Assembly (NCBI GenBank): GCA_030324005.1
Contig: JARDVH010000059.1
Span: forward strand, 58,811,879-58,875,878
Source: Negaprion brevirostris
Taxonomy: Eukaryota
Length of the DNA: 64,000 bases
Direction: 5' to 3'
Part shown: positions 19,055 through 60,411 of the stretch, in pieces
Layout of the letters: each line of letters begins with the position of its first letter
Numbering within the stretch: the stretch's first letter is position 1
The notes under the pieces: model-generated
Seen by the model: only the letters and a program-made list of their open reading frames with translations
Databases searched by the model: none
Told to the model about the DNA's origin: nothing
Made by a program: the position numbers and the translations under genes

Positions 19055-19693
19055 ATGGCTGAGGAAGAACCTTCAGATTCTGAAGAAGCCCAGATCTCCA
19101 AGTATGAGAAGCCTACAACTGCTCATGGATTCCAAACTACAAGTCCTGTTAAAGCGAAAAAGATTTACTTTTATAAAAGTGGTGACCCACAGTTTCCTGC
19201 GGTTAGGATGAGCATCAACAATCACACGTTTAAGACATTTGGTTCCTTATTAGATAATTTGTCTCAGAAGATTCCGTTGCCATTTGGGGTACGGACAATT
19301 GCCACACCTCGTGGTAGCAACAGTGTGACGAGTCTTTCAGATCTTAAAGATGGACATTCTTACATTTGCTCCGACCAACGGAAAGTAAAACCTATTAACC
19401 TTGAGCTAGTTAATCGGAAACAAGACCCCTGGTTTATTAGCAGATCTTATAATCCTGAGGAGCTTGTATCACGACAGATCAGACAGAAAGCCTCCAAGTC
19501 ATTTCACGCGGACTTAACACTAGCCACAGGAATTCCAAAGAAGCTTGTTGTTTTCAGAAATGGTGATCCTAGTTTCAGACGTAATCTAATTTTGAATAGG
19601 GACAGAATGCAGAACTTTGAGGTACTACTGTACCATATTAGTGAGCTGATGAATTTTCCTGTACTAAAGTTGTACACCACAAGTGGGAAAAGG
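19055..19693 (+). CDS. RP1: RP1 first coding exon (exon 2): DCX domain 1 and most of DCX domain 2
   Basis: Acceptor ttgcag ends at 19036; ATG at 19055 (aagATGg); donor AGG|GTAAGT at 19694; 639 nt, phase 0. Protein has KKIYFYKSGDPQF..TFKTFGSLLDNLSQKIPLPFGVRTIATPRG..LKDGHSYICSD and LVVFRNGDP..LYTTSGKR, typical RP1-family DCX motifs. Confidence 0.95.
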
Positions 19694-21679
19694 GTAAGTA
19701 GGTGCTATTGAAAAATAACTTGTACATAATTTGGAATGCACTTTCTTGGTGCTTCAGGAGTTTGTGGGAGACTCAAAAAATGCAGCCTTTGGTAAGAATC
19801 AACACATATCCCAGTCATAAAAGAAGTGAAATCTTCAATGTGACAATACAAATAGATATTAAATTCCTTACTGAACCAATAAAATAACCTGAAAAAACAT
19901 CATTTGAAAATATGAGGAACAGACACAATTCTATGATATTACAAACAGTAAGAGAATAAAGGACGAAGAACAAAAAACTAACTTCTCCATCCCAGCTAAT
20001 CCAAACCTGGTGCAGCCCATGCGCTCCATTAACTCTATACCCTAATCACGCACATGAAAGGAGTAAAAATTAGATTTAAAAATCTTGTATTCACTTGGGA
20101 AAAGGATACTGTGGATTTTAATGTTGCAGCCATTCAGTTCAATTTTATTTGGATAATTTGTCAAACAAAATAATACTCAGATGCATTCATTCATTCATCA
20201 AAAGGCATGTCCTAGCAATTGTTTCCCAGAAGTAGAAGTAGGCTACTATTTTACAAATAATTCTTAATGAAATTACATTTTATCAGAAAAAGAAATTTTT
20301 NNNNNNNNNNNNNNNNNNNNNNNNNNNNNNNNNNNNNNNNNNNNNNNNNNNNNNNNNNNNNNNNNNNNNNNNNNNNNNNNNNNNNNNNNNNNNNNNNNNN
20401 NNNNNNNNNNNNNNNNNNNNNNNNNNNNNNNNNNNNNNNNNNNNNNNNNNNNNNNNNNNNNNNNNNNNNNNNNNNNNNNNNNNNNNNNNNNNNNNNNNNN
20501 NNNNNNNNNNNNNNNNNNNNNNNNNNNNNNNNNNNNNNNNNNNNNNNNNNNNNNNNNNNNNNNNNNNNNNNNNNNNNNNNNNNNNNNNNNNNNNNNNNNN
20601 NNNNNNNNNNNNNNNNNNNNNNNNNNNNNNNNNNNNNNNNNNNNNNNNNNNNNNNNNNNNNNNNNNNNNNNNNNNNNNNNNNNNNNNNNNNNNNNNNNNN
20701 NNNNNNNNNNNNNNNNNNNNNNNNNNNNNNNNNNNNNNNNNNNNNNNNNNNNNNNNNNNNNNNNNNNNNNNNNNNNNNNNNNNNNNNNNNNNNNNNNNNN
20801 NNNNNNNNNNNNNNNNNNNNNNNNNNNNNNNNNNNNNNNNNNNNNNNNNNNNNNNNNNNNNNNNNNNNNNNNNNNNNNNNNNNNNNNNNNNNNNNNNNNN
20901 NNNNNNNNNNNNNNNNNNNNNNNNNNNNNNNNNNNNNNNNNNNNNNNNNNNNNNNNNNNNNNNNNNNNNNNNNNNNNNNNNNNNNNNNNNNNGTGTGCAA
21001 CTACATTTAAATTGATGTCACGCATGGTGCTGATCGTGGCCATTTTCGAGCCTTGGGAAAGGGGGAATTGGCGCAGAGGTGGGTGCGGATCACGCTATTC
21101 ACCTCACGCTTGACTTTACCAAGTTTTCGCACACGAAAACAGGCGTGAGTGGTAAAATTGGGCTTCATGGATGTAATCCTTTTTAAAAAAAGTATGACGG
21201 TATGCCTGCACGCTGAATGCTATACCATTTTCAATAGGACTTGGGCATCTTTATCTTTAAAGAACTTATAATTACAGTAGATCAGGATAGAATAGGCTTA
21301 GTTTCATTGAATTTAATTTAATTTCATTTCAAAAGGCCAGGTGTTAAATAAAGGTTGATAAAATTGTGTAAAGGAGTTGCATTTTATGCAATAATGCACT
21401 GTGCTCTAATCTTTCCTCATGTGGGATAATCTAGAATGAGAGGTCATTGTTTTAGGATCAGGGGTGGCCGATTTAAAACTGAAATAAGGAGAAACTACTT
21501 TCAAAGGGTTGTGAGCCTGTGCTTCAGTCTAGAAGATTGCTATCTCCAGAATGGTATCGAACTTCAATTACCATTGTGGCTCTGACATTATTCCAGGCCA
21601 GGAATTATCTAGGGTATATTACCCTTGTTACAATCAGAACATTTACAAGAGATCTTAAGTTCAAATCCCGGTTGACAAT

Positions 21680-22200
21680 CCTTTCCATCACTTGCTGATG
21701 ATTGAGAGTAGACTGATGGAGTGATAACTTGCCAGGTTGGACTTGTCCTTTATGTAGACAGGACATATCAGGCAGTTTTCTATCCTGCCGGGTAGACTGC
21801 AGTGTTATGGCTATATTGGAGAAGCTTGACTAGGGGCATAGCCAGTTCTAGAGCACAAGTCCTCAGTACTATTGCTAGAGTGCCTTCAGAGTCCAAGCCT
21901 TTATTGTATCCAGTGCTTTCAGCTGTTTCTTGATATCACTTGGAGTGAAGTGAATTGGCTAAAAACTGGCTTCTGGGAAGCTAGAGAGCTTTGTCAGGGG
22001 AAACTAAGATGGATCATCCATTCGGCACTTCTGGCTTCAGATTGTTGCAAATGTTTCAGCCTTATCTTTTACATTGATGTTCTGGGCTCCTTCTCCATTG
22101 AGGATGGAGATACTTATGAAGCCCCTTCATCCAGTTAGCTCTTTAGTTATCCACCAGCATTCGTGACTGGATGTGGTAGAACTGCAGAGGTTGCATTGGT
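21680..22200 (-). mobile_element. CR1-clade LINE internal fragment
   Basis: CCATCACTTGCTGATGATTGAGAGTAGACTGATGG..; homologous to 55585-55830. Confidence 0.6.
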
Positions 22201-23754
22201 TGTGGAATCATATGTGTATTCGATGAAATACATTTCTGAAATTCCGAGAAACAAAATGGCTTCATGTGTTTCAATCACAGAAAACCACAACTGCTTTTGG
22301 AGATTGACAATATTTATGGTCTATTTATGTCTATTTGATTACTCACTTAACACATCTGGAAGATGAGAAGTTTGGGAAGCAACTCAAATTCTATCACGTT
22401 ACGTATTAATGCTATCTGTAAAAAATTGCATACAGTATACACTTTCTTTAGATTTTAACTTTATTTCCTGTATTATTATAGTGTAATGCTACTTTCACAC
22501 AAGTGCCTGTTGTGCTTAAAAACATTTTTTTGTCATGCCGAAATAACTTTTTCATACAGGTGTTGCCCTATACCATGTGGCCAAGAACCTTCTCAGTTCC
22601 CTTAACTTCCAAATCCATTCAGGGCAACTGAAACCACCAGCTCAAACATTGTCTGATATTTTCATTTGCAAAGATACGATCTTCTAATGTTGGAATATTA
22701 ATTAATTTAACTTTTTATTTCTTACATATCTTTATTAGCCTATTCCTGCTCACAATCAAGAGATAATTATTTTCATTTACGCAATTCAGCATTTGTGAGC
22801 GACCGTTACCCCTTTGGCATTTTCTGAAGGGTATTTAATTAATTTATTTGTAAGCAGACTCAATTCTAGACCCAATTCCTCTCTCTTTGGGGATCACATT
22901 TAATTTGCACTTTATGAGAAACACACATTTCTTGAATTAATTAATGTATTAAAGAATTCAGTAAATTCCACCCCTGACTTCGACACAAAAAACAAGGATG
23001 CCAGATACATTTTAATCTGATTTGTCCCAATTTTTCTTTGTCTAAAGCATTACCTTTAAATGAATCTCAATTTAATTATTTCATGTATTGCTAGAATTTA
23101 TTTTCAATCCAAATTATTATCACTCAGACCCAATTCATGATCTAATTCCTCTTCCTTCAAAGCTGTTTGTAATTTAATACTTCGCAGAATCTATATTCCA
23201 GCCCATCTGATTTCCCCAATTAATTTCTCTGATGCCACTTTTATTTAACTATTTAGCAAGAACATGAGTTTCTACAATTATTGATTATGAAACAATTAAT
23301 AAAATCACATGAAATTTATTGCACAGAAACAAGTTGTTTGGTCCAACATATGCCAGTTTCTGTGGTTGACACAAATCTCCTCCCATATTATTTCATCCCA
23401 TCAAAATAATCTTCCATTTCTTTCTCCATCATGAAGTCAGTTGGCTGACCCTTAAATGTGCCTCTGTTTTTACCGTAACCACTCAAATGATAGAGTTCTA
23501 CATTTTCACCACTGAATTTCTTGTTGGATTACACTTACAACCTCTTGATTTGGATTTCTCTTCAAGTGGTAATATTTTCTACACATATCCCCCATTGCTT
23601 CACCAATGACTTCCATCCATCAGGCCCACGCTTTTCTGTTACCTCTTTGAGTAATGATCACAAATTATAATGCAGCTCCTAAAATCTATTAATTTGCTAA
23701 TAATTGAATAACAAATTTCAATTCACACTTTGTTGTTTCATGTTGGTTTTCCTA

Positions 23755-24420
23755 ATTGCAAGGGGGAATGGAGTATAAAAGTAAGAAAGATTTACTGCAA
23801 TTGTGTGGGGCATTGGTGAGACTGCATCTACAGTAGTGGATACAGTTTCAGTTTCCTTTCTAAAGAAGGGATATACTTACATTGGAAGCAGTTCACAGAA
23901 GTTTCACAAAGCTGATTTGTGGAAAGAAGGAATTATCTTATGAGTAAAGAATGAACATACACATGAACATACACATACACATTCCACTCCTGACTTTGAC
24001 GCAAAAAACAAGGATGCCAGATACATTTTAATCTGATGTGTCCCAATTTTTCNNNNNNNNNNTCATATATTGCTAGAATTTATTTTCAATCCAAATTATT
24101 ATCACTCAGATCCAATTCATGAACTAACTCCTCTTCCTTCAAAGCTGTTTGTGAATGAACATACTTCATTCATGGAAGAATGAAGGATAATCTTATTGAA
24201 ATGTTTAAGATTCTGAGGTGTTGTGAGAGGATGGATGCTGAGAGGATGATTCCCCTTGAGGGGCGGAAAATTTTAAAATGGAGTTCTTCATTTACAATTG
24301 AAATGAGGAGGAATTCCCATTTTCAGGAGATAATTAGTCATTGGGATGGTCTTCCCCAGAGAGCAGTGGACACTGGATCATTGAATATATTCAAAACCGA
24401 GTTAATCAGATTTTTGATAG
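23755..24420 (+). mobile_element. CR1 LINE 3' fragment containing an insertion at 23961-24152
   Basis: GMEYKSKKDLLQL..ALVRLHL, then DNLIEMFKILR..GSLNIFKTELIRFL. Confidence 0.8.
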
Positions 24421-29130: not shown

Positions 29131-29394
29131 CTCCAGCGCATTAATACTAATTCTGTGTGCCTTCTCTATTCCCATGAGAGATGATACTTCAGAGTTACAA
29201 AGAAAGAGTCTTTGCAACATATTGGATGCAGGGGAAGATATTAAGTTTAGGATTGTGGTCAAAGCCTGTACCTATTACATTTCTTTGATCATCATTTATT
29301 TCTCAACAATACTAGACATATAAAGGTAAATGTTTGGTGTTATTCCGACAGTCCTTGCCTGTATGTTAAAGTGCCTCGGTTTTGATTGTTTCAG

Positions 29395-29548
29395 ATTGAT
29401 ACTCTTTACCCAGTGAGGTATAAGTTTGAAGCTGTGGTTGCTGCTGGCCGAGAGGGCTATAGGCTGAGGAAATATGTTGATTCAAAGTCGCCACCAATCT
29501 CCACTCACATTCAGAACAAAAATGTCAGCAGAACAGAAAAGAAAGGCC
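29395..29548 (+). CDS. RP1: RP1 exon 3: end of DCX2 and linker
   Basis: tttcag|ATT acceptor, GCC|GTAAGT donor at 29549; 154 nt, phase 0 to 1. IDTLYPVRYKFEAVVAAGREGY contains the AVVAAGRE motif that closes DCX2. Confidence 0.92.
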
Positions 29549-30558: not shown

Positions 30559-31349
30559 GAGAAGCATTGGAGTAAGCCATTTAGCCCCTTGAGCCTTTTC
30601 CACGAGTCAATGAGATCATGTCTAATCTAATTTACAATATTGCTGCTATTGTGATAGAATTTGCAAATTGTGTGAAATGATTTCCTTCAAATAATGTGCC
30701 TGTTTAGAAAAAAAAAGTTACCCCATTGACTTAAGGAATTGATTTTTGTAAGTTTGCTTTTCTGTTGGGGAACAATCTGCCAATAATACATATTGGAAAA
30801 TCACAAACAGCACACCTGATATTTGCTGCTGATGGTCAAACGTATTCACTGCCAACACAAACTCAGGAGATGACTCCCAGAGTACCACTCAAATACAATT
30901 ACCATGTTGATGCAGTGATCCATTCTCTATTACCAACACTGAATGGTGGCAACATTTCATAGGAATTACACTTTAAGTGATACAGTGAGCACAGCTATAT
31001 ATGATCTCATGACCACTTAAAGGAGAAAAGAGAAACTGGGGATAAATATTAAAATATAGTAGAATGAGATGAAAGATAAATATGGTTAGCTCCCACTGGA
31101 CATGGTTGTACTGAAGGTGGTACTGAAAATTAAGTTGCAAAATGCAGAAGACATGGGACTCAAAAGAGATCAAGAAATGCATTATCCATGGACACAATAG
31201 TCAATGAATTGGAAAAAAAACAGTTGTACTAAAAGAAGATCACGCACACCCTGGTTTTGAGGAAGAACTCAGCTAGTGAACCCACAATTGAGGCAGAGAT
31301 CAATTAACAAAATGCTACTACTTAAGAAAGAAAAGAGACCCTGAGACAT

Positions 31350-32295
31350 ACTCACCCTTATCCAAACTCCCTTCCCACCTCCTCTCCCAACCTCCTCATC
31401 TCCATTTATCTTCCAGCTCTCTCCAACCTCATCCTTTCTCTTCCCCTTCTTCTATCGTTTCCCTTCCTTCCTTCAAGGTTTCCTCTTTTCCTTCTACTCA
31501 TTCTCTCCTCCTCACAGCCTCTCTTCCCCACATGTTACCCTCTTCCCACTTGCCTGCTCCTAATGTTTTCCCTTATCACATCTTTTACCTCCCCCTTCCC
31601 TACCCTTCCTTCTTCTACTCTTCCCTCTTTACCAAAACTTTTTTCTCATTCATCCTCAGCTTTGCCTTCCTCATTCTTTTTTCCTTCACTCTCTCTCTCT
31701 TTTTTCTTTGCCCTCTCTCTCCCACCCTTTCCTCCTTTTCTGTTTTACCTTCACTCTCCTTTCCTCATTATGTCCCATTCTCTTCCCTTCCTCTCTCTTC
31801 TTTACCCCCTTTATACTGTCTCTTCTCCTTTTCTCTTCACCTGTCCCTTCTGCTGCCAAATCCTTATTTTGCCTCATTCGACTTTCTTCCATTTATTTTG
31901 CACATTGTTTTCCCCATTGCCAGACCCCTTCTTCTCTCCCTATCTTTCTTCCCCACTCTCCTTGCTTTCTTTTCTTTTGCCACAATCCTCTTCCCCTTTT
32001 CCTCCCTTGCCTTTCCCCTCATCCTTTCTGTCCTACTCACTTCTTCCTCTCTCATCGAATATTTCTCTCCTCCCTCTTCTATCTCACTCTCCTCCTCTTC
32101 CCTCCTCTCTCCCTTTTCCAACTCATCTAGCTTCTGCTCTTCTTGCCTTCTTCCCTTTTCCCCTTCTCGCTAATCTTTTGTCCTTGCTCTTTCCTTCTTT
32201 TCCTATCCGTTCCTTTGCCTGTCTCTCCCATACCACCCACTTCTCTTCATCCTCTCCTGTCCTCTCTGCTCCTTTTCCCTATTTCTTCCCATCCA
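31350..32295 (+). repeat. About 950-bp polypyrimidine (C/T-rich) low-complexity tract
   Basis: Strongly C/T-dominated on the + strand with no fixed repeat unit. Confidence 0.95.
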
Positions 32296-33054
32296 TTTAT
32301 TGGGCAGAATTTAATGGATGTTCGGGAACGAGTTGGGAAATAAGGAGGCAATTGGTTAAGGGTGGGAGTTGGTAGGAATGTTGGAGTGCCCTTCACCTTT
32401 CCAAAATTATGAAATTCTTTGTGATGGGATAGGTCAAGAATGACTTTCCCACAGTGAGGCTACCTGAAGCCCTTAAGTGGCCACTGGGCCACTCAAAGGC
32501 GTCTAGCTGTTGCCACTGGCATTTTATCTGTGCTATGTCATAAGGGGAGACTTGGTAGCCTCCTTGCCAACTCAGGGTCTGGGTAGGCCAACCTTATCAG
32601 GCATTCCATGGCCTGTGAAAACGACCCTTTACATCAAGGGCCCCACCCCACAGAAATAATCCTGTCACTCGTATCCACCCTGCTTCTCTGTGCTGGGTAC
32701 AGTCGCAAAGCGCCCATCACTCCAGGAGGTACTGTTAGGATTGACTGACATCATTTGAAATAGGGCCTCATCCCTAAGAAGGATGGGACTCCCAATGACT
32801 GCAGATTACCTGCCTGACAAGGGTGGAGTGACCCTTCCCTGCTGTACCCATGGCATTGTGCGTGACTCAGCATGTTCCTGGGACAATATAAAATTTCCCC
32901 TATTCTCTGTCCATTTTTTCACTTCCTCTGCTTTATCTCCTCTATCTCACTGCTCTCTAACCTAGCTTGTCTGGGAGATCAGCTTTAGAAACATAACAGA
33001 AGTTTTAAAATCAAGTGCTAAAAAATGTAATCATGGTATAAGTGACCAATTTGT

Positions 33055-33750
33055 CATCCTATGTTTGTCTACAGATCTCAAAAGGCAGGAGGGCATGTTA
33101 ATAGAGTGATCAAAAAGGCATTTAGGACACTTGCTTTTATCAATCAAGGCATTGTTTACAAAAGCAGGGAAGTCATGTTGAAATTGAATAGAACTTTGGT
33201 AAAGCCACAGCTGGACTACTGTGTGCAGTTCTGGTTGCCACATTATAGGAAGGATGTGATTGCACTGGAGAAGGTGCAGGGGAGATTCACCAGGTTGCTG
33301 TCTGAGAAGGAAAATTTATGAAGTGAGGTTGTGGAGACTGGATTGTTTTTGTTGGAGCAGAGAAGACTAAGGGGCGACCTGATCAAAGTGAATAAGAGAG
33401 CATTGGACAGAATGGATAAGAAGCAATTTTTCGTCTCAGTTGAAGAATCAGTCATGAGGGGACATAGGTTCAAGGTGAGGGGCAGGAGATTTAGTGGGGG
33501 GAATGTGAAGAAAAAATATTTTAACCAGAAGATGGTAATCATCTGGAATGCGTTGTCTGGGAGGGTGGTAGAGGTGGGTTGCCTCACATCCTTTAAAATG
33601 TATCTGGGTGAGCACTTGGCATATCATAACAATCAGGGGTATGGGCCAAGTACTGGCAGATGGGATTAAGAGGGATTCAGGTGTTTCTAATGTGTTGGTG
33701 TGAACCCAAAGGGCCTTTTCTGTGCTGTATGTTTTATAACTCTATGATCC
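33055..33750 (+). mobile_element. CR1 LINE 3' end
   Basis: YKSREVMLKL.RTLVKPQLDYCVQFW..LEQRRLRGDLI..QGYGPSTGRWD*. Confidence 0.9.
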
Positions 33751-34071: not shown

Positions 34072-37000
34072 GTGGGATAAAGTTAGGGAGAAGACAATGG
34101 CTCATTAATTCAGTCTCTCCTTCCAGCTCAAATTCTCAGGGTTACTCCACATCTTCTGATAAATTTTATGTGAATAACAGTAAAAACCTTTTAAGAAACA
34201 GCTTCCATTCACCTAAAAATGAAACTGATGCTTACAAGAATTACATTTACACAGGGGAAGAAAAGTCTATGATACCATCAGAAGATGACATTGAGAAGTC
34301 CGTCTTTATGACTGAGGATGGCAGTATAACTGTAGAAATGAAAGTACACCTCCACATAAAGGAGAAAGAGACAATACAATGGACTAGTACAATTAGTCAT
34401 TCTAATATATGTAACAGGAAGCTTAATACTCACAAAGCAAAACTGAAATCTAATGTTGAATCAGCAGATCTTATTAATGCACGCCCTTACCTTAATTCTG
34501 AAGTGATGCACAATGAGAATTTAGGCCATGAGCAAGACTTCCATGATATTTTCACACCTCAAAAATGCACAAGACAAATAGAACATGCTAAACACGGACA
34601 TTGTGACATCTGGCAAAATAAGTTTTTGGACACAAATGAAGATCTTCCTGAACTGGGGGCAGAACTCAAAGATCCTGCTCGTGGGAAGATAACACAGGAC
34701 CAGGTATGTCTGGAAAGCATGCCTGCCAATCCTGACACAGAGATTGGTGCAAATATAGTTCAACTTTCAAAGCTGGATGGGTCAGGACTTGGAGAGAGCA
34801 CAGTAGAGAACTGTAATGAGCGTTTTTCAATATCAAATGCAAAGGAATCTTGCGAAAGAAGTAGTGACGCAGTTTCTGACAAGTCACAAACATGGGAAGA
34901 GGTAAATGTGAATAATCAGGGAGAAGAGAAAACAATCCTAGATAAAGACACCTCTTTTGTTCGGAAAAGTTCCTCCTCAAAGTACTCAGGGTGGTGCCAT
35001 GCAGACCAATTCACTGAACTGAAAATGATCAACTCCCACGATGAAAGTACAGATGCAAGAAATATGTGTTTACAATATTGGGAAGAAAGTGGGTGTGATG
35101 GCATGGATAACAATGTTGCAAAGTTAAATTTGAGACCTACTTCTGCAGATGCAACATGCCCCATTTCAAAACAAGGAACTAAATATGTAAAGAGATCCAT
35201 GAGTGCGTCATTCAAATATTCTAGATCTTCTGCGTCGATTCAAAAGGAAACAACTAGCTTGTCATCCAGAACAGGGTGTTCACACACATCAACTGAAAGA
35301 ATGGACATAAACATGAACTGTATTTGCAGTTCTGAGATTTGTCAAGCCGGAATGTCTGTATTTTCGGAAGATTTAAACAGTGTCTCAAAGTGTTTGCAAA
35401 GTTCTGCTTCTGTGAGGAATCAGGATTGCACCAATACTACTGATAAGGTGGAGATGCCAGTTAACACAGATTCGGATGACTCGTCACCTACAGATGAAGA
35501 GGAAAGAGCTTTTTGCAGAGCTGAAGAGGCATGTCAGATTTACGATGGTTTAGCTTTCTCTTCAAGAGTGGATGAGCAAAACTGCAGTAACCACACAAGT
35601 GAGAATACAGAGCTTTGCCCAGAATATAGCAGTCATTCACAACAACCTCAATTACTAGACCAGCTTGAAAAAACTGATTTGAGTGATGATTGCACTGCTC
35701 CCAGCAATGGTCAAATTGCAATGGAAATGGTTGACACTGACAAGTATCAAAGTACTGAATTTAATCCTGGTGAGATGTCTAATGAAAGCAAAGTGACATT
35801 TCATATTGAAAGAAGCGGCAATAGTCCTGTGTCTCATGATTCCATAGCGTTGTTACCTCCTAAAGAAGAAACAAACTCTGATCTTTCCCAGTTACTGCCA
35901 GAAAAAGGACCTTGCAGTACAGAATCACTGAATTATAAATTACAACAAATGGAGGACCAAGACACTCACACCATCAGCAACAGTTCTGTAACATCCTCCA
36001 GAAATGAAAATATATCTGAGGTGAACATTTGCCAAGATATTTTTTCAGAGGGTAAACTGACCAGTTTAATAATAGGCTGCACAGAAGAATTGAATCTGTA
36101 CCATGAAGAATGTGTTCAGCACAGTGCAGTTACTACGGAGAGAAATTCTGATTTGCCAGAAAGTTCCTCAGTTCGACTAGAAATTGATCCTGATTCAATT
36201 TCAGGTGGAAATATAAAACAAATCCCGGATGTTAGCAGTTGCTCCATTGACAGTGACATCCAACAAAATTTTTCTAATCCTTGCAGGAAGAAATGGAAAA
36301 ATAGTAGACTATTTAATATAACTGCAGTCGGGAAACATAATTTCAAACATGATACTGAAAGTTCAAAACCTTTTTCTATTTTGATGCAACAAGAGGAGCA
36401 GGAATTATATAATGCTGATAGCTCTCAAGCACACAATTTTGTGCAAGAAAGGCTAAATATGTCAGGAACTTCTGACACGGTGTGCAATGATTTCAATCTT
36501 AAATCTTATCCACAAACACAACTTGAAGGGCAGCAGACAGTTGATGATTTGACCAGTAATATTACCAAAGAATCAAATGAATTGTCTGACCATGATTCTG
36601 ATTTTATTAATCAAACCAAAAAGCTTAAATCTGAAATAGAGGTTCCAGCTGGATGCAGGTTAATGCAAGTATCAGCCCCAGCTGTTGGTGACATGCAAAA
36701 GGTATATGAAGTATCAGATGATTGCAACAGTGATGATTTATTGCAAAGGCAAGTAAGTGTCACAGAAGGAGAGGGTAAACCTGCACCCATACCACATGAG
36801 ATTCAGCACAGGACCATTACAGAAGTAATTGATGACAAACTTAATGAGATTGACTTTGCAAAAGAAACAATTGACATTGCAATCCAAGCTGACATTGGAC
36901 TCATTTCTGAAATGGCTGAAGAGAAGGACTCTTTTGGTGAACATGACCTAAGCCAGGTGTTGTGCAAGCTGCAGTCAACGCTTGCTGTGATCAAATGCAA

Positions 37001-40000
37001 TTCTGAACACAGGAACAACATTTGTCTCAAGAATTCTTATGAAAGAGCTGATATGTCAGAACATCTTGCCACCACGTTAAGCACATCTTCAAAGGTCCTA
37101 CTTGCTTGGTTAGCAATAATGAACCTGAATGATACTGTTCCAGCTTCATCCACCAATGCAAAGCTATTGATGAATAATTGTAAGTGTTCTGAGATAATAA
37201 CATTTTTGCAGTCCATAAGGCGTGTTATCAAACTTCAAGAAACTGATGATTTAAAACATAGTATTCCACATCTACAGAAATATGCCTCTCAGTTAGTAAA
37301 AGTGTGGAAAAATGAACATTACAAAGGATCTAGCTCTGCTTTTGAAAATGACCCTCAGACTGAATGTTCTGTACAGCTTGGAACTTCAGATGTTCAACAG
37401 ATTTCTTCATACGATGCTCCGCAATTGATCAAAGCTGCTGAAAATGAGAAGTATTTTTATATGCAAAATTTAATTGAACAGCCGGAGCATGCTGATGAAG
37501 CTGAAGAAAAGGAAGAAGTTAAATTTAATGCTAACATTCTTTCAACAGAAGAAAACACAAAAGAATCAGGTGACAATGATTCTGAACTCCTCAGTTCTAA
37601 AGACAGTTCTATTTTTTCTGATATGTTAGAAAGTCAGATAGAAACTGATTCTCTATTTCTAGGTAAAGGCACATTTGATGAAACAACAGTTATGACCAAG
37701 GAATGGGCTGGGAAGGAAACAGTTGAGAGAGAAGGTGATGATCCGAAGGAGAAGTTTGCAACTTTACAACACATTGAAGATATGAGACCAGAAAATGTTG
37801 CTAAAAATAAAGAATTCCTTTATATCAACTGCATAAATAATAATGAAAATAGACACTCAGGAAACCTGAAGTACAAGGAAACTAGCAATCACTTTACATG
37901 TGCTAACAGTACAGAAAAAACAGATGAATTGTCAGCAGCTTCCGATACAGCGTTTCTTCAAAATAGGATCTCTCTTCAAAGCTCCTTGTGTCACAAATCA
38001 TCTTTAGCAAATGATATATGTGAACCGAAGCACAGAAATATGTTTTGTCAGGGAGAACGTATAAGCAAAAGCAATAGTTGTGAAATACCTGCTTGCCGAC
38101 TTTCACCAGTTGCTTCTGTGGCTTCTAGCAATGATATTGAGAATGGAAAAAAGACTGACAGTCANNNNNNNNNNNNNNNNNNNNNNNNNNNNNNNNNNNN
38201 NNNNNNNNNNNNNNNNNNNNNNNNNNNNNNNNNNNNNNNNNNNNNNNNNNNNNNNNNNNNNNNNTATTGAGAATGGAAAAAAGACTGACAGTCAGCAACT
38301 GACAAAAACAAAAGAAATCTGTGAGAACCCTTCCGCTGAAGGGGAAGTTGGTCATAAGGAATTATTGCCAGGTATTTACCCGCCGGTACCATTAAATCAT
38401 AATATCAAACAGTGTTTAGAAAGACAGCAGACATCTGACTTGTCTGAAGAGAATCAAGAAAGTGCGAACAGTATTGCAAGCAATTACAATTCCCAAGAAT
38501 CCTATGAAATGACAACGGAGGGAGAGGACGTAGTGCTTGTAAAAACAAGACATTTCTCTGCAAACTTTGTGAGAAAAGCTACTGCGAGACTGTATGGCAA
38601 ATCACATTATGTATCAAAACACTTGGCAAATGACTTGACCCCCAGTGACCGTGCAGAGACAGAAGCAGTTTTCCAAACTAGGACCACTGACAACGCATCT
38701 TGTAAAATATCCGCAAGTAGTGATAAATCAAACACTGCTGGAACATACGGCATTGATAATGAATCGTTACACATTTCAGGCTTGGATAAGGGCCACACAT
38801 TTAACAAATCTCAAGACAACAGTGCACAATCTGAAAATGATGGTGTGTATATTGAAAAAGGACGATGGTTTCTAAAAGAAAACCACTTAATAAGAAAGTC
38901 TCCTCCTCTAAACTTGGGAATGTATGGAAACCTAGATACAACGTCAGTTGATACAGCAAGTGATGATTCTGCATACCCACACATTAATGCTATGTATTCC
39001 GGTCCTCCACTGTCTGAATTGTCATCAACAGATATTGAGGAGGGGATAAAATCAAGACCTATGTGTAATTATTTTAACATGTCTCATGGGAGTGATTCAG
39101 AACCATTCCCAGACTTAATCAGTGAAAAAAATCAGTATAGCCATATTTGCAGTGGTTCCCATCTTACCAACAAGAATGACAGCAATAAACAATCAGCTCG
39201 AACTCCTGTTGGGCCTACAGGGATGTATGCTGAAGCGAATGACAGTGACTCATCTTTTAGCTCAGTGGGATTTCATATGTTTGACAACAAAGTGAGTCCC
39301 ATGGTCCAGCCGTTAGCTCAAGGGACTGTGGTGGAGCAGCCATCTAGAGAAACTGCCAGAACTCTTCAAAATCCAGGGTCCCTGGATAAGCATCGTTTTC
39401 TATGTGGCCAGTACTGTCCTATTCTGACAACTGTCATTGAAGCAGGCAATGAGGAGAGCAGAAATTTTGTATATCAGAAAAAATCAGATCCGGAGAATCA
39501 GTGGATATTTCATTCGGAAAATGGAGCAGATATTTTTAACATTGGGAAGTGCAATGATTTAATAACTGGAAAAGAAAATTTCTCAGTATTAAGTAAACAT
39601 TTAAATGATGAAATTATCGGTGACATAGCTAATTGGTTTAATGCTCAAAATTTTGAGGATGACGTTAGAAGAATTAAATTAAGTCTTGTTGCAAAATGTT
39701 TGGGTGCTAATCTTAAAACATTAAAAGCTCCCGTCTACACTGAAGAAACAGAATCGAAGCACAAAGACAAGCCATTTTGTTCTAATATTCAGGCTGAGAA
39801 ATTATATATGAAAGGAATAATAGAACAGTGGTTCATGAAACAGGCAGTAGAAAACAAAATCAAAGCAGTCAAAGGAAGGAAAAATGGCATATCATTCCAA
39901 GCTCGGAAAGTGGAAGATTCTTCAGGTCAACACACTGATCCATACATTCTTCATACAAGAAGCACAGCAAATAATAATGCCACTATTACTTTATTGGAAG

Positions 40001-40122
40001 ACAATGTTATTGGCCAAACCACGTCTTCTGGGAATATCAGTCCAAACGGGGCTACAGTGAGTTCTGAAAAAGAGCCATTTTGTGAAAGACACAAGGCAAA
40101 GCTTGAAAAACACAATAAATAA
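34072..40122 (+). CDS. RP1: RP1 giant terminal exon (exon 4), interrupted by an artefactual gap at 38165-38264
   Basis: Long pyrimidine tract then gcag|GT, phase 1 matching exon 3. RP1-type blocks EDDIEKSVFMTEDGSITVEMKV, KVLLAWLAIMNL, GVYIEKGRWFLKENHLIR, YFNMSHGSDSEPF, LCGQYCPILT. TAA at 40120-40122. Collapsing the 30-bp overlap at the gap gives one ORF; total CDS 639+154+5921=6714 nt (2237 aa). Confidence 0.92.
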
Positions 40123-40289
40123 AAGGGAAAGCACCGTGAGTGAGGGGATTTATTCTGCATGGTTACAAGTATTGTCATTCCTCATGAATGGAAAATAGCA
40201 AAAGAAAGAATTCGGCTGAAATAATAATGCTTTCTGATCAATGCCAAAATAAGGTCCAGCCTTTGCAAAATAAAATTAGATGAAATAAA
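40114..40289 (+). terminator. Candidate polyadenylation signals after exon 4
   Basis: AATAAA at 40114 and 40118 (overlapping the stop), 40269 and 40284, with more downstream. The site actually used cannot be determined. Confidence 0.3.
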
Positions 40290-40416
40290 ATATTTCTTTC
40301 AGTAAATAGTTTGACAATTAATAACAAACTATTCCTCTTAAACACAAGGTGTACAGTAAAAGTTGTCAGGATTTTACAGAAGAATTTACTTTCTTGAGCA
40401 TTAGAGCAACCCAACC

Positions 40417-40547
40417 GGGCAGTACTGTGGCACAGAGGTTACTATTGCTGCCCCCTCAGCTCCAGGGACCCAGGTTCTATTCCGGCCTTGGGTGAGATGC
40501 AGTTTTAGAGAATTGATGCAGACTTGATGGGCCAAATAGCCTCCTTC
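40417..40547 (+). mobile_element. Internally deleted V-SINE
   Basis: tRNA head (GGGACCCAGGTTCTATTCC) joined to a TGCAGACTTGATGGGCCAAAT tail. Confidence 0.65.
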
Positions 40548-43009
40548 GTGGATCAATTAAAAATTGTGTTTCGATTTGCAATTAAAGTTTAGATTAAAAA
40601 TATAAAACCATGGCATTAATTTTGTGCTTTGAGTTTGCATTTTGTAAATATAAATGCTTCTAGTTATTAACATCAGAATGAATCATTGAACAGTCTTATT
40701 TGTTTGCACCCTCAAAATACTTAAACTTGTTTTGTTCTAGTGTACCGGCAAACAAGATCTGAACTTTATTGTTTGAGCAATTTCAACTTGTAGAGTGATC
40801 AGATTTCTTTACCTTTCCAGATATTTTTACATGATTTAGTCATTGTATTCTGTAGTAGCAGATTTGGTCATTTTCCCAAGGTTGTGCTTTTCAATTTGGT
40901 ACTTCAGGAAAGACGCATATAATCCAAACAGGATGTCCAGTAGTGAAAATTGACTGGCTAAGACATTGAGACAGTGTCATAAGGTGTAATCTGAACTCTC
41001 ATCATTACATAAGTATACTTATAAACCATGCTGAAGACATCCATATAGCTTCATAACTGCACCAATGTTTTGTTTCCTGCTTGACTTCTTGAATTCACCA
41101 TTGAACACTGACCTCCTGAAAATTGAATGATTGCAATACTATTTTCAAAATCTTTGATCTGAATTTTATTCCCTTTGGATTAAATACTTGATAAAGGCTG
41201 CTTGTGTTTTACTGGTAAATGAATATCCAGCCATCATCATAACCATTTTGTCCAAACTTATGTTTCAATATCGATTTCTATAATGCTGATGCTCAAAATT
41301 TTATCTGGTTTAATGTTAGGATGGTTGGAGAAATAAAGTTAACAGAATAAAGCACTGATGCTGGATATAACCCCCAATATCAAAGAGTCACTTACAGGCA
41401 CAAAATAAGAATAGTAAACTGTCAGTGTGGATTGCACATCTTCAAGCAATGATGTTACAGTATCAGGTGATTTCACTTAATTTGGTGTAAATTTCAATGT
41501 CAGGAGGAACTCGTAGATGGGGAAGAGTAGGGTTCCCGCCTCTAGCATAAAAATGAGGTGCCCGATTGCACCTGCTTTGTTGGCTCACTTTGCAACCATT
41601 TATTTACCATTGGGCCATTAATCAGTTTGAGGCAGATCTTCTGCCCTCACTGATGTGTTACAGCATCCAATGTTGGAGGGATGGAAGTTGAATGTGTCTG
41701 AGAAAGGGCCACGATATCGACTGGTTGCCAGACTGGATGAGTTTAGAGAAATTTGGAGGGGTGAGGCCAAGAGGGATTTGTAAACAAAGGTGATCGTTTA
41801 CATAACTAAGGGTTAGTTCAGGTTGGAGTTGAGGGTTGATGGGTTAACACTACTTGCTGTGAGTTTGGATGTAGATAGTAAGATTTTGGGTGAGCTCAAG
41901 TTAAGGGAGCAAACAAGGCTGCTTGGCAAGTATTGGAGTCAACCAAGCCAGAGATAAGAAAGGTATATTTGAAGATCTCAGAAGCAGTTAAACCGAGATA
42001 GGAATGGAGACAGGTGCTGTTGTGAAGGTGGAAGTAGGGGTGGTCTTGTTGATAGGGAAGAAATGAGGTTGGAATTTCAGTTCAGAAGTGTGTGGGAGTT
42101 GTGAACAATCTGATTTTGTCAAAAAACCTCCAGTCTCTAATACACCCTCATAAATGAAGGGTTCATTTTATCAACTAAAAGACTAATTTCATATTTATCA
42201 TCTGTCGCATTGTAATATTAATTAGTCTGCTGTAATTAATAATGTTTTGGGAAAGGAAAATTTAACATTCCATGTGTCCATATGGTCTTTGCACTATTCA
42301 CCAAACAGCTCTGTTTGAAGCCCAAATTTCCAACATTCATAAACACACCTTTGGTGTACTTTAACAAGAAGAGAATGGATTTCATTGCACTTATTAATTT
42401 TGATCTGTTGCATCTAACATTAATGCATTAGCAACAAATCTATGACAAAGTAACTGTGGCTGAGCCAGTAAATGAATTCCACTTCTTGCCTGCGTTTATT
42501 GCTGTGATTACACCTGTATTCACATTCACATTCAGAAGAATACCTGTGCACGTTGAATATGTATAACTGTGATAACCTTGGGATATTTCACTATGTTAAA
42601 TACGCTATACAAATACAAGCTATTATTATTATTGCAGCAATATATTTTTACTTTCTGTCACTAGGGAAGCCAATAGGGATTTTTAAACATTCTGCCAGTT
42701 TCTGTTTGTACAATCTAAGTTAGTATGCAAGGTTAATTTTGAGCATTGATCTTTTAATTCTATGTTAAAATTGTTTGTTTCATTATCTTATGTCATAAAT
42801 TAAGAATTTATAATGTATTTGTCACAATATTAAACATAAAAATTGCTTTTAACTTTGTTCAACTGTCAACCTCAGGGCATTTGTATTCCTCTGATATGGA
42901 TTGTGAATTAAATAGTATACAATAAAAAAAAGCTTGTTATTATGTCAATTTCATTGGTATTTGAATGCAGTTGGCTTGTTATGTGATATACTATATTCAG
43001 CATAGTTAT

Positions 43010-48695: not shown

Positions 48696-48856
48696 GTAAA
48701 TGGAAGGTAACTGTTTACACTAGTGACCTACCATCTGCAGGTACAACTGCTCAGGTTTATATCACATTCTATGGTGATGAGGGAAACTCGAAAGCTATTA
48801 TACTTCAAGGAAATTCAGAAGAAATGTTTCAGAGTGGTCAAGAGGACAGTTTCACC
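48696..48856 (+). CDS. RP1: PLAT/LH2 domain exon a (probable alternative RP1 3' exon)
   Basis: catag|GT acceptor, ACC|GTATGT donor; 161 nt, phase 1 to 0. KWKVTVYTSDLPSAGTTAQVYITFYGDEGNS..MFQSGQEDSFT is the classic PLAT N-terminal part. Confidence 0.85.
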
Positions 48857-49039: not shown

Positions 49040-49314
49040 GAATTGCTATATTCATCCCATTGTGATATTCAAAGTGGATCAGTATTTCTTTCCAATTAAT
49101 TTTCATAGGAAGGTTTCCCTAATATCATGAACTCATTGTACAGTTGGTGGGAAGTTAATTTTAATATATTTCATTCATTTCTTCACGTATTTATAAAAAT
49201 GCTCAATTCAGTTTCTTTCTTCCACATATATTTTAGTGGATACCAAAAGGTACATTTTGCTAATGCATCATCCTTGGGTGGAGTCATAATAGTTGGGAAC
49301 TCATGATAAAATTA

Positions 49315-54954: not shown

Positions 54955-55415
54955 GCATGACGGTAGCTATGCTATAGGACAGAACATATATCAAGAAATA
55001 ATGGAGGCAATAGTCATAGGAGATTTTAATCTAAATATAGTTTGGGCAAATCAAATTAGTAAAAACAGCCTGGTGGAGTTCATAGAGTGCATTCTGGACA
55101 GTTTCTTAGAACAATACATTCTGGAACTAAACAGGGAACAGGCTATTTTAGACCTGCGAATGTGCAATGGAGCAGGATTAATTAATGATTTCAAGGAAAA
55201 GATTCTCCTGGTAAGAATGATCATAACACAATAGAATTTCACATTCAGTTTGAGGTGAGCAATTTGGGATTGAAGCTAGTATCTCAAAGCTAAATAAAGA
55301 CAATTACAATGATATGAAGATAGAGTTGGTTAAAGTGGAATGAGAAAATAGGTTAAAGGGAAAATGGTAGAGAAGCAGTGGTACATATTTAAGGAAATAT
55401 TTCACAACCCTCAAT
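54955..55415 (+). mobile_element. CR1 LINE endonuclease fragment
   Basis: IVIGDFNLNIVW..EFIECILDSFLEQYI..REQAILDL. Confidence 0.85.
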
Positions 55416-55930
55416 AGTGGGATGGGCAAACCACAAAAAACAACAGAGGCATCAGCAGGATTGGAAGATCCCATTGGTGGCCAATGTCAAGCCACCCCTA
55501 CTATTTCCAGGGAGCAAGATAACCCCACCCATCAAAGTTAGTTTTGGTAAGACATCTAGATGGCACACTTGCTCAAGTGCTGCCTTTGACATCAAGGGTA
55601 TTCACCTCATCACTGGAAATGAATGCTTTTGCCCATATTTGGACCAAGGCTGTTGTGAGGTCCAGAATTAAATGTTCTTGGTAGAACCCCAACAGTGCAG
55701 GTTATTGTTCTAGCCCAGATTACTAGCACAGCTCCATCACATGACTTGTGATTGAGATTGGACTGATGGGATGATAATTGAATGGATTTAATTTGTCCTG
55801 TTTCTCATGGACAGGGTGTGGCTGGGCAATTTTGAACATTTATTTTCTCAGGTTCAACATGAAATTGCAATATGTTCTGTAACAATGCAAACAAGGAAAT
55901 TTGAGAAGAATTTATTTATTTACACATTAG

Positions 55931-56017
55931 GTAAACACAAAGAATATTGGCAAATTATACAAAATTCGTATTGGACACGATAATGCGGGAGAATTCCCAG
56001 GATGGCATTGTGAATCG
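55931..56017 (+). CDS. RP1: PLAT/LH2 domain exon b (not in the ORF track)
   Basis: cattag|GTA acceptor, TCG|GTAAGG donor; 87 nt, phase 0 to 0. VNTKNIGKLYKIRIGHDNAGEFPGWHCES matches the PLAT core (IG.L.KIRIGHDN.G..PGW). Confidence 0.88.
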
Positions 56018-57049
56018 GTAAGGACTCAATGAGCAAGCTTATTTCTTCATTTTATGGAACCCTGTAGTTGAGCAAAGAGTAATTAATTTGAAAGAAACTG
56101 TGTGTGAGAACTAAATAATTCAAACAAAATATTGAAATCATATTGAATCAATTAACCTTTACACTGTGTCAATGTTAGTTATAATATATTAGACATATTT
56201 TCCTCTGCTTGTCCTTGTGAACATGAATATAAATTGGACAGTTCTGCAGATTTATTCTTTCAACCCCAGGCTCATTTGGATGTTTGAAAAGAAAGACCAG
56301 AACTGAGATGCTCACCAGCTTTACTCAATCAAACTACATCAAAGATCATTGCTGTGTGTGAGCCCTTGTATACCACAAGATATTTTATGATTTTATGATC
56401 AGTTTTTAATGCAAGCAACACGGGTCTCGCCCACTGGCTGGAGAGCCAGCAAGAGCCTCTTGTCTTCTTTTGGGAAGGCTGGCCAAATTTAGTGCTCAGC
56501 AATATACTTCCCTGAGATCAAAGAAACTGGGGGCAAAAGTTCTCCCTAAATCAGAAATTGGCAGAGGTGCATTGCAGGCAGCTCCAGTGTCATCTACCAG
56601 CCATGCAGTGACCAGGGACAGAGGACTTCAGGGAGACCCCAGGTGAACATTGACTGGTGACAGAATGGGGAACACGAAGTGGGGGCTGCAAGGAAAGAGG
56701 TTGTGCAGTTGACAGCAAGGGACTGTCTTCAAGCTCCAACCTTTAAACATGCCTTGGTTGGAGGGTGTTAAATTCCATCCTATAAGAAGTGTATCTGATC
56801 AGTTAATGTTGCTTACAAGTGAAGTGGAATGCCTTGGTACTCTAATAACTTACTGAATTGATATGACTGCCTTCTAGTCTTTGGATAGCATAAAAATAAA
56901 CTACACATCACATTTATCAAAAGCAACAATTTGATCAGAAAATAAATCCAACACTCTTGAGCTGCAGCATGAGAGGGAGATGGTGGCAAAGGCAGCAAAG
57001 AAGAAGAAAGCTGCTCATAGAGGGATAAGGAGATGAAAGGGAAGAAAGT

Positions 57050-57700
57050 CTCTGAGCTAAAGGCCTATGTGTTTTTTGGGAGGACTCCTCCTTCCTCTCC
57101 CTAAACAAAGAGCAGTGTGTTTGTTGTTTATGTTTCATAAAGAAGGTGCTCACAGAGCCAACTGTTGGAACCAGATCTGCAGTCTCAGTGCCACGTCAGA
57201 GTGGCGTTGCCAGTGGTGCTGAAAGTGGTCTAGGCCCTCAAGTTTGATGCGTCAGGATTTTTACAGGCTGGAACAGGTGACTTGGCTAACATTTAACAGT
57301 TTACAGTCCCTGTTGTATCAGAGAGATGTCAGAATGCCTGGAGAGGGAAGTTCACTGTGTGCTCTCTGAACAAAGAAATGCAAGCTCAGAGTGCATGTGG
57401 CTTTGACAGGATCTTGGACGTCCCCATGATGTAGGGTGCCATTAACTGCACACACGTATTTTTGCAGGTGCTTTGTCTCAATGCTGAGGGATATCATTAC
57501 ATCAAAGGGCACCACTCAGTCAGTATGTAGTTGGTGTATGAACATGCTCAGCATATCATCTTGGCAAATGCCTATTTCAGTCTGTTGTTCTTAGTCAGGT
57601 GGAGGAGGAGAAAGGGAGGAAGGAGCTGACATACTCATATTCTGGATGGGCTATCAATGAGCACTTTGTTTTCTTCTGGTTGCTGTGAATACAACTGTGA
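57050..57700 (+). mobile_element. Decayed PIF/Harbinger transposase
   Basis: ALKFDASGFLQAGTGD (ALNFYASGSFQ-like), GFDRILDVPMM*GAINCTHV (GFP.V.GAIDCTHV-like), then an acidic GAG-rich tract. Confidence 0.75.
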
Positions 57701-57959
57701 ATACACATTATCTAACCATTCCACATCTTTAGTGATGAACCATCACACCATTCTCTCAGCCAACTCTCTGAAAAAAAAGCCACCGTGAAACAACCATTCC
57801 ATATCAACTTTATAACAAAAAGTCCAATAATCCATCCAAAACTGGACTAATCATCCTTTTGCATTTCCTTACTGTCCATCTTGCAGGTATCTTTGCTTGT
57901 CCTGGTGCTCCTAAACAGCCTTTCTCCAGCATGGCATGTGACAGGCTACAGATTTTCAA

Positions 57960-58118
57960 GATGTAGAGTTGCCGGCATTAGACTGGGGTAGGCACAGTAA
58001 GTGGTCTCACAACGCCAGGTTTAATTCCAACAGGTTTATTTGCTAACACAAGCTTTCAGAGCGTTGCCCCTTCATCAGGTCCTGTTGGACTTTAACCTGG
58101 TGTTGTGAGACTACTTAC
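57960..58118. mobile_element. Penelope-like inverted-repeat element with hammerhead-like core
   Basis: 38-bp inverted arms 57997-58034 and 58081-58118 (34/38 match); the loop on the minus strand reads CTGATGA AGGGGC AAC GCTCT GAAAGCTT. Confidence 0.7.
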
Positions 58119-59724
58119 AGCTTTTCAATGCAAGGAGTCTACAAGCGTTCTTGCAAGATGTACTTGAGCAGCTTGGACCTTGAATGCACAACTTAAGATT
58201 GCACCACCTCGACGTGAGCAAATTTTCAACCTTGTAAACTGTGCCAAGTTGGAGCTGGACAGTGCTGGCAGGCATTCTAACAGGCCTGCCAATACACCTA
58301 GCATTTCTGTGTGTATATCCATCGATTTTTTTTTCCCTGCATAAAGCTCCAATCAAGTGCTCATCTGAGTGCATTGTAGCAGAACTCATGTGTGACCTAA
58401 CCCCACAGGGAGCTGATGTCTGTGCATTTTTTTTCTTTTTTGCCCTGACATTTTAAAAATTATTTTCTGGGATATGAGCATCAGTGGCAAGGCCAGCATT
58501 TGTTATCAGTTCTAACTGTCCTCGAGAAAGCTGCCTTCAAACTGAGTAGCTTGTTCGGTCAGTTCAGAGGGTGGTTAAAAGTGCATCTGGAGTCAGATGT
58601 CAGTCAGGCCAGGGAAGGATGGCAGATTCCTGAAGGACATTAGTGAATAAATTGCTGTCCACATGTGTCCAGCGACTCACTTGGCTGGATCTTACAAGCC
58701 TTTTCGTGAGAGGCTGGGCAGTGGATGGGTGTAAAATGGTGAGGGTGGGGTGGGGTGCCTGTCACCGCCATGCCACCACAGTGTTTTACCAATGACGGGG
58801 AAGGTGGAGGTTAGCTCTTCAACTCAGAGGACAATTGAGCTATTAACGTGGTCAAACAACGGTGTCTTCCTGCTGTCAGTGGGATTTTACCAGCTGCTGA
58901 TAGTCTCTAGGCCAATTGGGGAGGCTACCTGGTAAATGTCAGCAGTTTCCCACAGGTTTAGGTGGAGGCCCCTTCTCATTAGTCACTCTGCAGCCCATGG
59001 AGGGGCCCCTGATGGCAAAGGCCATCCCTATTTGTCTGGCCCCAGCAATCCCCAAACCCATTTACCAGTCAGGATGGTAGCATCCTTCCATGCAGTCCTC
59101 ACAGTTGCCTGCAGTCCCAGCAATGGCAATTGCTCTCAGACACTGGTGAGCTGTCTATCCTCTGATTAGCTGGCAGCTCTGTGAAATGGGCTCCTTTTCA
59201 TGAGACAATCTTCCTGATGGCACCAAGACTCCTGATAATTGCCAAATAAGTGGAGAATACTGCTAGAGTCTGACACCTGGCCAGGTGAGGTTGCAAGCTG
59301 TGAGATGTGTGTATGCTGCTTGTGCAAAGGTGAGATAATTCTATAAATATGAGGAATGAGTCATGGCTGATCAAAACTTATGGTAAATGGATGGTGTGAA
59401 TAGAACAATGGTGTTCAGTGCTGCAGTAGGTAGGATAAAGCAAATGAAGGTGCATTCATTGACCTTGAAAACTGGTGTGATGTTAGTAAATTTCTTTCAT
59501 CACAGCATTCAGGTCTTGCTGGCATTTTCCATCATGGTCACCTGCTCCCACTCTCTTCTCAGTCGACATTCTTCTGCCTAGATGATCTCCAGGCCCCTTG
59601 AGGGAAGAGGATGTCTCTCCCCTTGTATCAAGGCCTCCAAAAACGCTGTCTGATGCTCAATTTGCATAGGTTCTCTTGGTCTTCAACTCATCTTTAAACA
59701 ATTTTAGTCTCTTCTGCAACCAGA

Positions 59725-60020
59725 ATACATAAGAACATAAGAAATAGGAGCAGGAGTAGGCCATCNNNNNNNNNNNNNNNNNNNNNNNNNNNNNNNNNNN
59801 NNNNNNNNNNNNNNNNNNNNNNNNNNNNNNNNNNNNNNNNNNNNNNNNNNNNNNNNNNNNNNNNNCAACATTCGCCAATTCTTCTCTCATCCTACCGTAC
59901 TCCCCTCTGTTCAAACAAAGGACGCGTGTCCGGGAACCCACTCTCTCCTCCTCCATCTGCACCAGAAACTCCACCATACAATGATCACTCTCCCCAAGAG
60001 GATCCTTCACCACAAGTTTA
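59725..60020 (-). mobile_element. CR1 LINE pieces (tail and endonuclease end) across a gap
   Basis: (ACATAAGA)n tail; VKDPLGESDHCMVEF. Confidence 0.8.
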
Positions 60021-60278
60021 GCCTTTAGGATATGCAGCCTGGCTTAAAGTCGCGCATATTAGTTATTATTGGTGCTGGCGTCACAATATAGTTAGCAAAC
60101 AGCATGGCGTTTGCGTGCTGCCTGCATCAGCTCAAATGACCGTGGGTTAAGAGCACATTGCTACACTCAACTTTGCACATTATCTAACATAGCCCCCACA
60201 TACTTTAAACAGGAATCTTGGAATGCTTTGATCTTGTGTTTGTGTATCTTACTGTACCTTTCTGTTGGTATGTTGCAG

Positions 60279-60411
60279 ATCCACTTAAAGAATATTTACT
60301 CAGGTAAAGAGTATCATTTTGATGTTAATAGTTGGATGGATCAAAATCAAGATGATGGAGAAATCAGTCGAGAAGTGCCTGTTGAGGAAAACGGTAAAGA
60401 GGTCTTCCCAG
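60279..60411 (+). CDS. RP1: PLAT/LH2 domain exon c
   Basis: ttgcag|ATC acceptor, CAG|GTAAGT donor; 133 nt, phase 0 to 1. IHLKNIYSGKEYHFDVNSWMDQNQDDGEISREVPV matches the PLAT C-terminus (Y.F....W......DG.I.RE). No stop codon, so the gene continues beyond the window. Confidence 0.88.

Follow-up and report, generated by a model that had tools for sequence, protein, structure and literature searches.

Two probable 3' ends of one locus

The stretch analysed here, referred to below as the window, comprises 64,000 nucleotides of the genome of the shark Negaprion brevirostris (GenBank assembly GCA_030324005.1, contig JARDVH010000059.1, positions 58,811,879 to 58,875,878 of the forward strand) and carries RP1, known from the literature as a photoreceptor-specific gene of four exons (PMC3424119). 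The first coding exon (19037..19693, + strand), which corresponds to RP1 exon 2, has its acceptor at 19037 and an ATG at 19055; its coding sequence (19055-19693) specifies DCX1 and most of DCX2 and ends at a donor in phase 0. Exon 3 (29395..29548, + strand; 154 nt) supplies the end of DCX2 and a linker and closes with a phase-1 donor, GGCC/gtaagt. Both exons would be common to two forms of the gene that diverge at this donor: the acceptor at 34072 yields the junction EKKGR-GIKL and that at 48696 yields EKKGR-KWKVTVYT, both restoring the frame, and at either site the AG is preceded by a pyrimidine tract. The original prediction, made from the letters of the window, had described exactly this double compatibility, and the coordinates and translations agree with it; the profile search that it suggested recovered PLAT and two DCX stretches (Pfam, E 8.6e-26 for the latter).

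The nearer acceptor opens the coding part of the giant exon that ends the canonical, photoreceptor-type isoform (34072..40122, + strand; approximately 1,970 amino acids, stop codon TAA at 40120-40122). The tail is rich in Ser, Glu and Asn, and while no Pfam family matched it and a search with a tail block in the ESM Atlas gave no usable match, three blocks of it correspond to the tails of RP1 from coelacanth, bichir, frogs and teleosts (coelacanth RP1, E 8e-56). A 100-N scaffold gap with duplicated flanks interrupts the exon (38165..38264), but contigs of two sequencing runs (X1 and X3, introduced below) directly join 38134 to 38265, so the gap is an assembly artefact rather than a frameshift and the tail isoform is open over 2,237 amino acids. 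The likely 3' untranslated region (40123..42940, + strand) has the poly(A) signals ATTAAA (42907) and AATAAA (42921) near its presumed end, and an X1 contig (40061-42878) covers it, stopping shortly before them. In its two N-terminal DCX domains, short exon 3, giant last exon, tail blocks and SOX17/XK-family neighbours, the tail form does not differ essentially from canonical RP1 (oxygen-regulated protein 1, NM_006269); what the shark locus very probably encodes in addition is the long PLAT form. A long pyrimidine-rich low-complexity tract (31300-32340) lies in the intron that separates exon 3 from the giant exon, and fragments resembling long and short interspersed elements occur at 33046-33666 as well as elsewhere.

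The farther acceptor opens the first exon specific to the long form (48696..48856, + strand, phase 1-0), which encodes the first third of PLAT1; the middle exon (55931..56017, + strand, phase 0-0) and the last exon (60279..60411, + strand, phase 0-1) complete the domain, and the frame runs on in 50 exons past the window. As the original prediction stated, all three are stop-free, have AG/GT sites and follow the phases 1-0-0-1. It had also envisaged two DCX domains followed by PLAT repeats; a long run of PLAT domains does exist, but the exons in the window make up a single PLAT domain (amino acids 268-373), and the further repeats all lie downstream of the window. Scanned as single exons, the first matched the Pfam PLAT family with an E-value of 2.4e-7 and the second with 5e-4, the latter under the cut-off.

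Nine sequencing runs are listed for the comparison of transcripts, none of them recorded as RNA. X1, which we take to be RNA by guess, comes from a close relative differing by approximately 2-3%, X2-X4 look genomic, and X8 and X9 have zero exon cover; contigs from these runs show presence only. A 6,636-nt X1 contig joins 29548 to 34073 (its upstream piece being 29394-29548), a joint not seen in X2-X4, and thus uses the shared donor with the proximal exon that carries the stop and the poly(A) signals. A second X1 contig, 525 nt long, aligns to 48708-48856 and ends at the donor 48856. The X1 cover in the bins of the next two PLAT exons (1.22 and 1.5) fits that predicted from this contig (1.24 and 1.5), and the lengths of the PLAT exons plus the next exon downstream sum to 521 nt, so that the three PLAT exons appear to lie in one intron-less contig; their mutual joints, deduced from the alignment end and the bin cover, are not among the joints listed. 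The contig depths (174 and 5.8) served to identify the contigs and not to rank expression. No joint between 29548 and 48696 is among those listed and no X1 contig covers 48696-48707, which is no evidence either way. The junction of exon 3 with PLAT1 in the shark is inferred from the models of other species, 174 of which pass directly from DCX to PLAT. The phases, the occurrence of the spliced tail contig and the PLAT-exon contig in one run, and these 174 models bear out the earlier claim of alternative 3' exons, and we regard the two-isoform structure of the RP1 locus as very probable.

The proposed course of events is as follows. The two DCX exons are spliced to the giant exon, and likely also past it into a run of 53 exons. 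Where donor 29548 is joined to acceptor 34072, as in the contig of the relative, the stop and the poly(A) signals of the giant exon end the transcript, the cleavage site being predicted; where 34072 is skipped, 29548 would join 48696, as it does in the models of other species.

The long frame and its beta-trefoil module

The long frame was built by mapping vertebrate models onto 400 kb of downstream sequence. It consists of 55 exons spread over 305 kb, reaching approximately 260 kb beyond the window end; all 55 have AG/GT sites, and the frame is in phase throughout and stop-free over 2,755 amino acids. A candidate for the last exon sits 21 kb further downstream. The predicted protein has approximately 2,770 amino acids and comprises two DCX domains, two PLAT domains, two FGF-like beta-trefoils and 15 further PLAT domains. 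Full-length identity is 49% to the sturgeon model, 47% to that of the alligator and 42-43% to those of two frogs. Pfam alone counts 12-13 PLAT domains, while an iterated profile finds 17 in the shark and in seven of ten long vertebrate models (the other three having 16, 14 and 4). A PLAT profile run over a 464-kb stretch at RP1 marks 39 segments on the plus strand and none on the minus strand, and it gives no match in 220 kb (32 kb of them N) at the paralogous RP1L1 locus, so the matches are not due to chance. The search for more PLAT exons downstream that the original prediction had called for thus yielded 50 exons, a total of 17 PLAT domains and the two beta-trefoils.

The beta-trefoil module, approximately 270-277 amino acids long, sits between PLAT2 and PLAT3. 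The predicted model of its Chiloscyllium counterpart (predicted local distance difference test score 90) shows two beta-trefoils, each of which superposes on FGF1 over approximately 125 residues (Z approximately 19.5, root mean square deviation 1.6-2.2 A). FGF1 and FGF2 are the closest single-domain matches (Z 19.7, deviation 2.0), with tandem-trefoil lectins and fascin matching too; the matches of the module in the ESM Atlas were all under 0.9. A larger model of 1,020 amino acids scored poorly (58) and was set aside. The shark trefoils share the fold of FGF1 and FGF2, but they are only approximately 22% identical in sequence to them and are internal to an intracellular protein of approximately 2,800 amino acids, and the fold common to the modelled trefoils and FGF1 says nothing on function. 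Membership in the fascin family was rejected, as the module has two trefoils against four in fascin and is 11-12% identical to it.

With LOXHD1, a protein of 15 PLAT domains that acts in stereocilia (PMC8051682), the long form shares a long tandem PLAT array and likely a similar role as a scaffold for membranes or proteins. The listed LOXHD1-type proteins, which include no DCX domain or trefoil, nevertheless differ from the shark long form, and LOXHD1 works in actin-based stereocilia. The long frame is not LOXHD1, a PLAT-only protein, as it adds two DCX domains and two trefoils to 17 PLAT domains. A separate cluster of PLAT exons on the minus strand (G000:C1:25,390,049-25,489,284) is a candidate for the shark LOXHD1 gene.

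Distribution, ancestry and identity of the gene

The original prediction regarded the PLAT isoform as something retained by sharks, whereas models with DCX and PLAT occur in most vertebrate groups: sharks, skate, chimaera, sturgeon, gar, bichir, lungfish, frogs, reptiles, birds, monotremes, marsupials and eutherians. Comparison of the trefoil with 1.84 billion representatives, and a query with amphioxus, extended the distribution beyond jawed vertebrates. The same domain order is found in lamprey, amphioxus, Ciona, hemichordates, echinoderms, annelids, a brachiopod, nemerteans, molluscs, flatworms and the jellyfish Sanderia, so that the invertebrate deuterostomes in which DCX-PLAT proteins were to be sought do have them. 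The Sanderia model has two DCX domains, two PLAT domains and trefoils, and a sponge fragment gives a weak trefoil match. The register of the junction is kept as well, being KKGR-KWKV in the shark, TKGR-FKVW in lamprey, SKGR-FRVW in amphioxus and TRGK-WKVW in Owenia. Some models show additions of their own: after its trefoils the Sanderia protein (P0221) carries a long acidic Glu/Asp/Lys repeat tail of low complexity that does not match the motifs of the RP1 tail and may be independent of it; echinoderm orthologues (P0261, P0273 and P0138) have fibronectin type III repeats besides the PLAT array; and hemichordate models reach 38-41 PLAT domains.

DCX and PLAT occur together in 179 of 394 stored proteins; 174 of these are without tail motifs and five, all vertebrate models, have both. 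The tail motifs are present in 82 proteins (80 named as vertebrate and two unnamed) of a sample biased to vertebrate queries for the tail, and in none of the 42 invertebrate DCX-PLAT proteins; the lamprey models likewise have none. In a tree of DCX1 the nine jawed-vertebrate RP1 rows group together (support 97/80), and the invertebrate DCX-PLAT proteins group with RP1, apart from seven DCX1 rows of shark paralogues (93/90). The jellyfish DCX pair ranks the shark RP1 locus first (E 9e-22); this ranking is biased because both DCX halves share one exon at the shark locus, and it was not used as proof of orthology. Since the invertebrate models share the domain order and are without tail motifs, the DCX-PLAT gene is likely the ancestral one, as the original prediction supposed, and the photoreceptor tail likely arose in vertebrates as an alternative last exon. 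Vertebrates would have gained the giant exon, inside the intron that follows exon 3, ahead of the duplication into RP1 and RP1L1, and RP1L1 would afterwards have kept the tail only.

The number of PLAT domains varies among vertebrates: eutherian models have no more than six (approximately 1,380 amino acids) against 17 in the shark, while the count is 16-17 in the shark, sturgeon, frogs, reptiles, birds and three marsupials. The scarcity of PLAT in teleosts (see below) and the eutherian stop at six domains are possible lineage losses.

The long isoform is very probably real, is conserved and present in automated annotation, and its existence is not new to databases. The expectation that such a form had been annotated but hardly characterised proved correct, as the human transcript NM_001375654.1 lacks exon 4 and its function is stated to be unknown (PMC11919084). 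Its protein, NP_001362583.1, is comparable to the shark long form in that exon 4 is skipped, and vertebrate models named RP1 or 'LOXHD1-like' share the order DCX-PLAT-trefoil-PLAT; the family has been hidden because databases label its members either way. A 2006 survey of the DCX superfamily placed the RP1 group in vertebrates only, and the words 'lipoxygenase' and 'LH2' do not occur in the available part of its text (PMC1550402). Our literature search, which reached few subscription papers, yielded no publication dealing with the PLAT/trefoil architecture, its ancestry or its invertebrate orthologues.

The locus in the window is the shark RP1, and a distinct RP1L1 gene sits elsewhere in the genome; both assignments follow from sequence comparison and from neighbouring genes that fit the human gene order. 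The proteins nearest to the DCX exon are shark sequences (72-74%), the top matches being RP1 or RP1-locus models; a sequence search of the PDB found no RP1 chain. A gene with a Sox17/18 domain lies approximately 220 kb upstream of the locus, its top PDB match being SOX17 by a narrow margin over SOX18. On the other side, an XK-related gene on the same strand begins approximately 32 kb beyond the last mapped PLAT exon (first exon at L030:1502-2272, + strand, approximately 291 kb beyond the window end). We take the latter to be XKR4-like and the human order to be SOX17 - RP1 - XKR4, in which case the order is kept in the shark. That the window holds RP1L1, the SOX7-adjacent paralogue, was ruled out, as a separate RP1L1-like gene (G000:C25:70,334,900-70,352,000; L074-L076) lies 190 kb downstream of a Sox7-like gene. 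It resembles RP1 in having a DCX exon (mostly inside an N gap), exon 3 and a homologue of the giant RP1 tail exon, but differs in that neither PLAT nor trefoil exons were found in approximately 195 kb downstream. Another DCX gene, at C59:110.4 Mb, was rejected as RP1L1, a tail match being absent; in this region (G000:C59:110,427,000-110,486,000; L042, L045-L051) the DCX exon lies between a large frame that we presume to be TRANK1-like and a frame presumed to be DCLK3-like.

Upstream of the coding exons lies a perfect palindrome, GTTTCCATGGAAAC (15265..15278), which resembles an RFX X-box and is a candidate ciliary promoter element, though a weak lead. Its exact pattern occurred in none of 100 shuffles, but the pattern was picked after the site had been seen. 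Compared with the published consensus GTNRCC-N0-3-RGYAAC (PMC10530576), the palindrome has two mismatches, a level reached at 59 places within positions 1-19055. The interval 15265-15649, from the palindrome to a strong donor (AAA/GTAAGA) near 15649, may be a non-coding first exon spliced to 19037. The motif TAATCC, presumably a CRX/OTX-type site, is not enriched (26 found, 32 expected).

Possible function of the long isoform

DCX domains take mouse Rp1, a protein known to bind axonemal microtubules and to reside in photoreceptors, to the axoneme (PMC3424119), and PLAT domains are known to bind lipids and proteins (PMC8051682). RP1 belongs to the human airway cilia proteome (reviewed in PMC11353096), serves as a marker of ciliated cells (PMC12556950), appears in the lung and fallopian/endocervix clusters of a study on motile cilia (PMC7331728, supplement), and is a direct target of RFX2 in the mucociliary epithelium of Xenopus (log2 fold change -1.52; PMC3889689). 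We consider it likely that the RP1 locus has, besides the tail form, a long form that would attach to axonemal microtubules in motile cilia and probably contact the ciliary membrane or ciliary proteins. The DCX domains would bind the axoneme, as they do in canonical RP1, and in ciliated cells driven by RFX the PLAT chain would be a spacer or scaffold of the LOXHD1 kind at the ciliary membrane. The linker role in motile cilia, taken by itself, is one to which our analysis leans slightly. More tentatively, and with a little less confidence than an even chance would warrant, the protein may have been a pan-animal ciliary one at its origin (DCX-DCX, two PLAT domains, two beta-trefoils and up to approximately 40 PLAT domains) that linked the microtubules of the axoneme with the membrane of the cilium; photoreceptors of vertebrates would have swapped its whole membrane-facing half by means of one giant alternative last exon, and humans would keep a six-PLAT version in motile cilia.

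Several points weigh against this interpretation. The ciliated-cell data on RP1 are all isoform-blind, and membrane binding by the PLAT domains of the long form is our inference only. The junction of exon 3 with PLAT1 draws its support from models of other species, nearly all of them automated (XP_, UniRef), and from one sentence on a human transcript, while X1 is a single run of a relative whose RNA status is guessed. The absence of the tail from invertebrates refers to proteins and not to genomes, and the DCX1 tree is based on 74 columns, with support under the 95/80 mark and RP1L1 left out. PLAT is present in only one of 68 teleost RP1 entries. Teleosts have motile cilia, and the long form is in them either dispensable or unannotated. 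Finally, many models (Chiloscyllium, gar, opossum and eutherians) end at six PLAT domains, and the 3' half may therefore often be a separate transcript.

The best surviving alternative, though an unlikely one, is that the long isoform exists but has its main place of action elsewhere than in motile cilia: it could serve sensory cilia or, as LOXHD1 does, hair cells; it could accompany the tail form in photoreceptors; or its fascin-like trefoils could let it cross-link microtubules and actin. The tail and PLAT contigs do come from the same run, fascin is among the folds that tandem trefoils resemble, and the 15 PLAT domains of LOXHD1 operate in stereocilia; yet the closest single-domain matches are FGF1/FGF2 and not fascin, and the non-retinal expression of RP1 has been reported in motile ciliated cells. 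Much less probable are two neighbouring genes, an RP1 of three coding exons and a separate PLAT gene of the LOXHD1 type, driven from a promoter at 43-48.7 kb, with the DCX-PLAT models being annotation fusions or read-through. In its favour are an in-frame ATG approximately 35 nt upstream of the acceptor 48696, the two 100-N gaps and the 47-N gap within 43-48.2 kb, and several models with PLAT, or with PLAT and trefoils, but no DCX (Callorhinchus P0131 and Microcaecilia P0142, for example), which a separate start would also yield. However, invertebrates, whose proteins show no tail, join DCX to PLAT in one protein and in the same linker register, the join is common to the 174 models across phyla, and the literature treats the human transcript as an isoform of RP1 without exon 4 (PMC11919084). 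A reading of the PLAT exons as decaying relics whose transcription is only leaky is largely refuted, for although PLAT9, PLAT15 and PLAT16 share no more than 25-46% identity with those of the other jawed vertebrates tested and eutherian models are shorter and teleost ones mostly without PLAT, the 53 exons are free of stops and frameshifts, and PLAT2 and PLAT8 (61-70%) are as conserved as DCX1 (64-66%).

RP1 is among the genes commonly involved in retinitis pigmentosa, and a conserved second product would account for the presence of RP1 in airway cilia proteomes and for its use as a ciliated-cell marker. Mutations in exon 4 are predicted to spare motile cilia and those in exons 2-3 to affect both forms, and the downstream exons would become candidates in unexplained ciliary disease. 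The family would also offer a clean example of how a cell-type-specific protein comes about when an ancient gene gains a single terminal exon. If humans do keep the six-PLAT form in motile cilia, RP1 variants outside exon 4 would hit an unrecognised ciliary protein.

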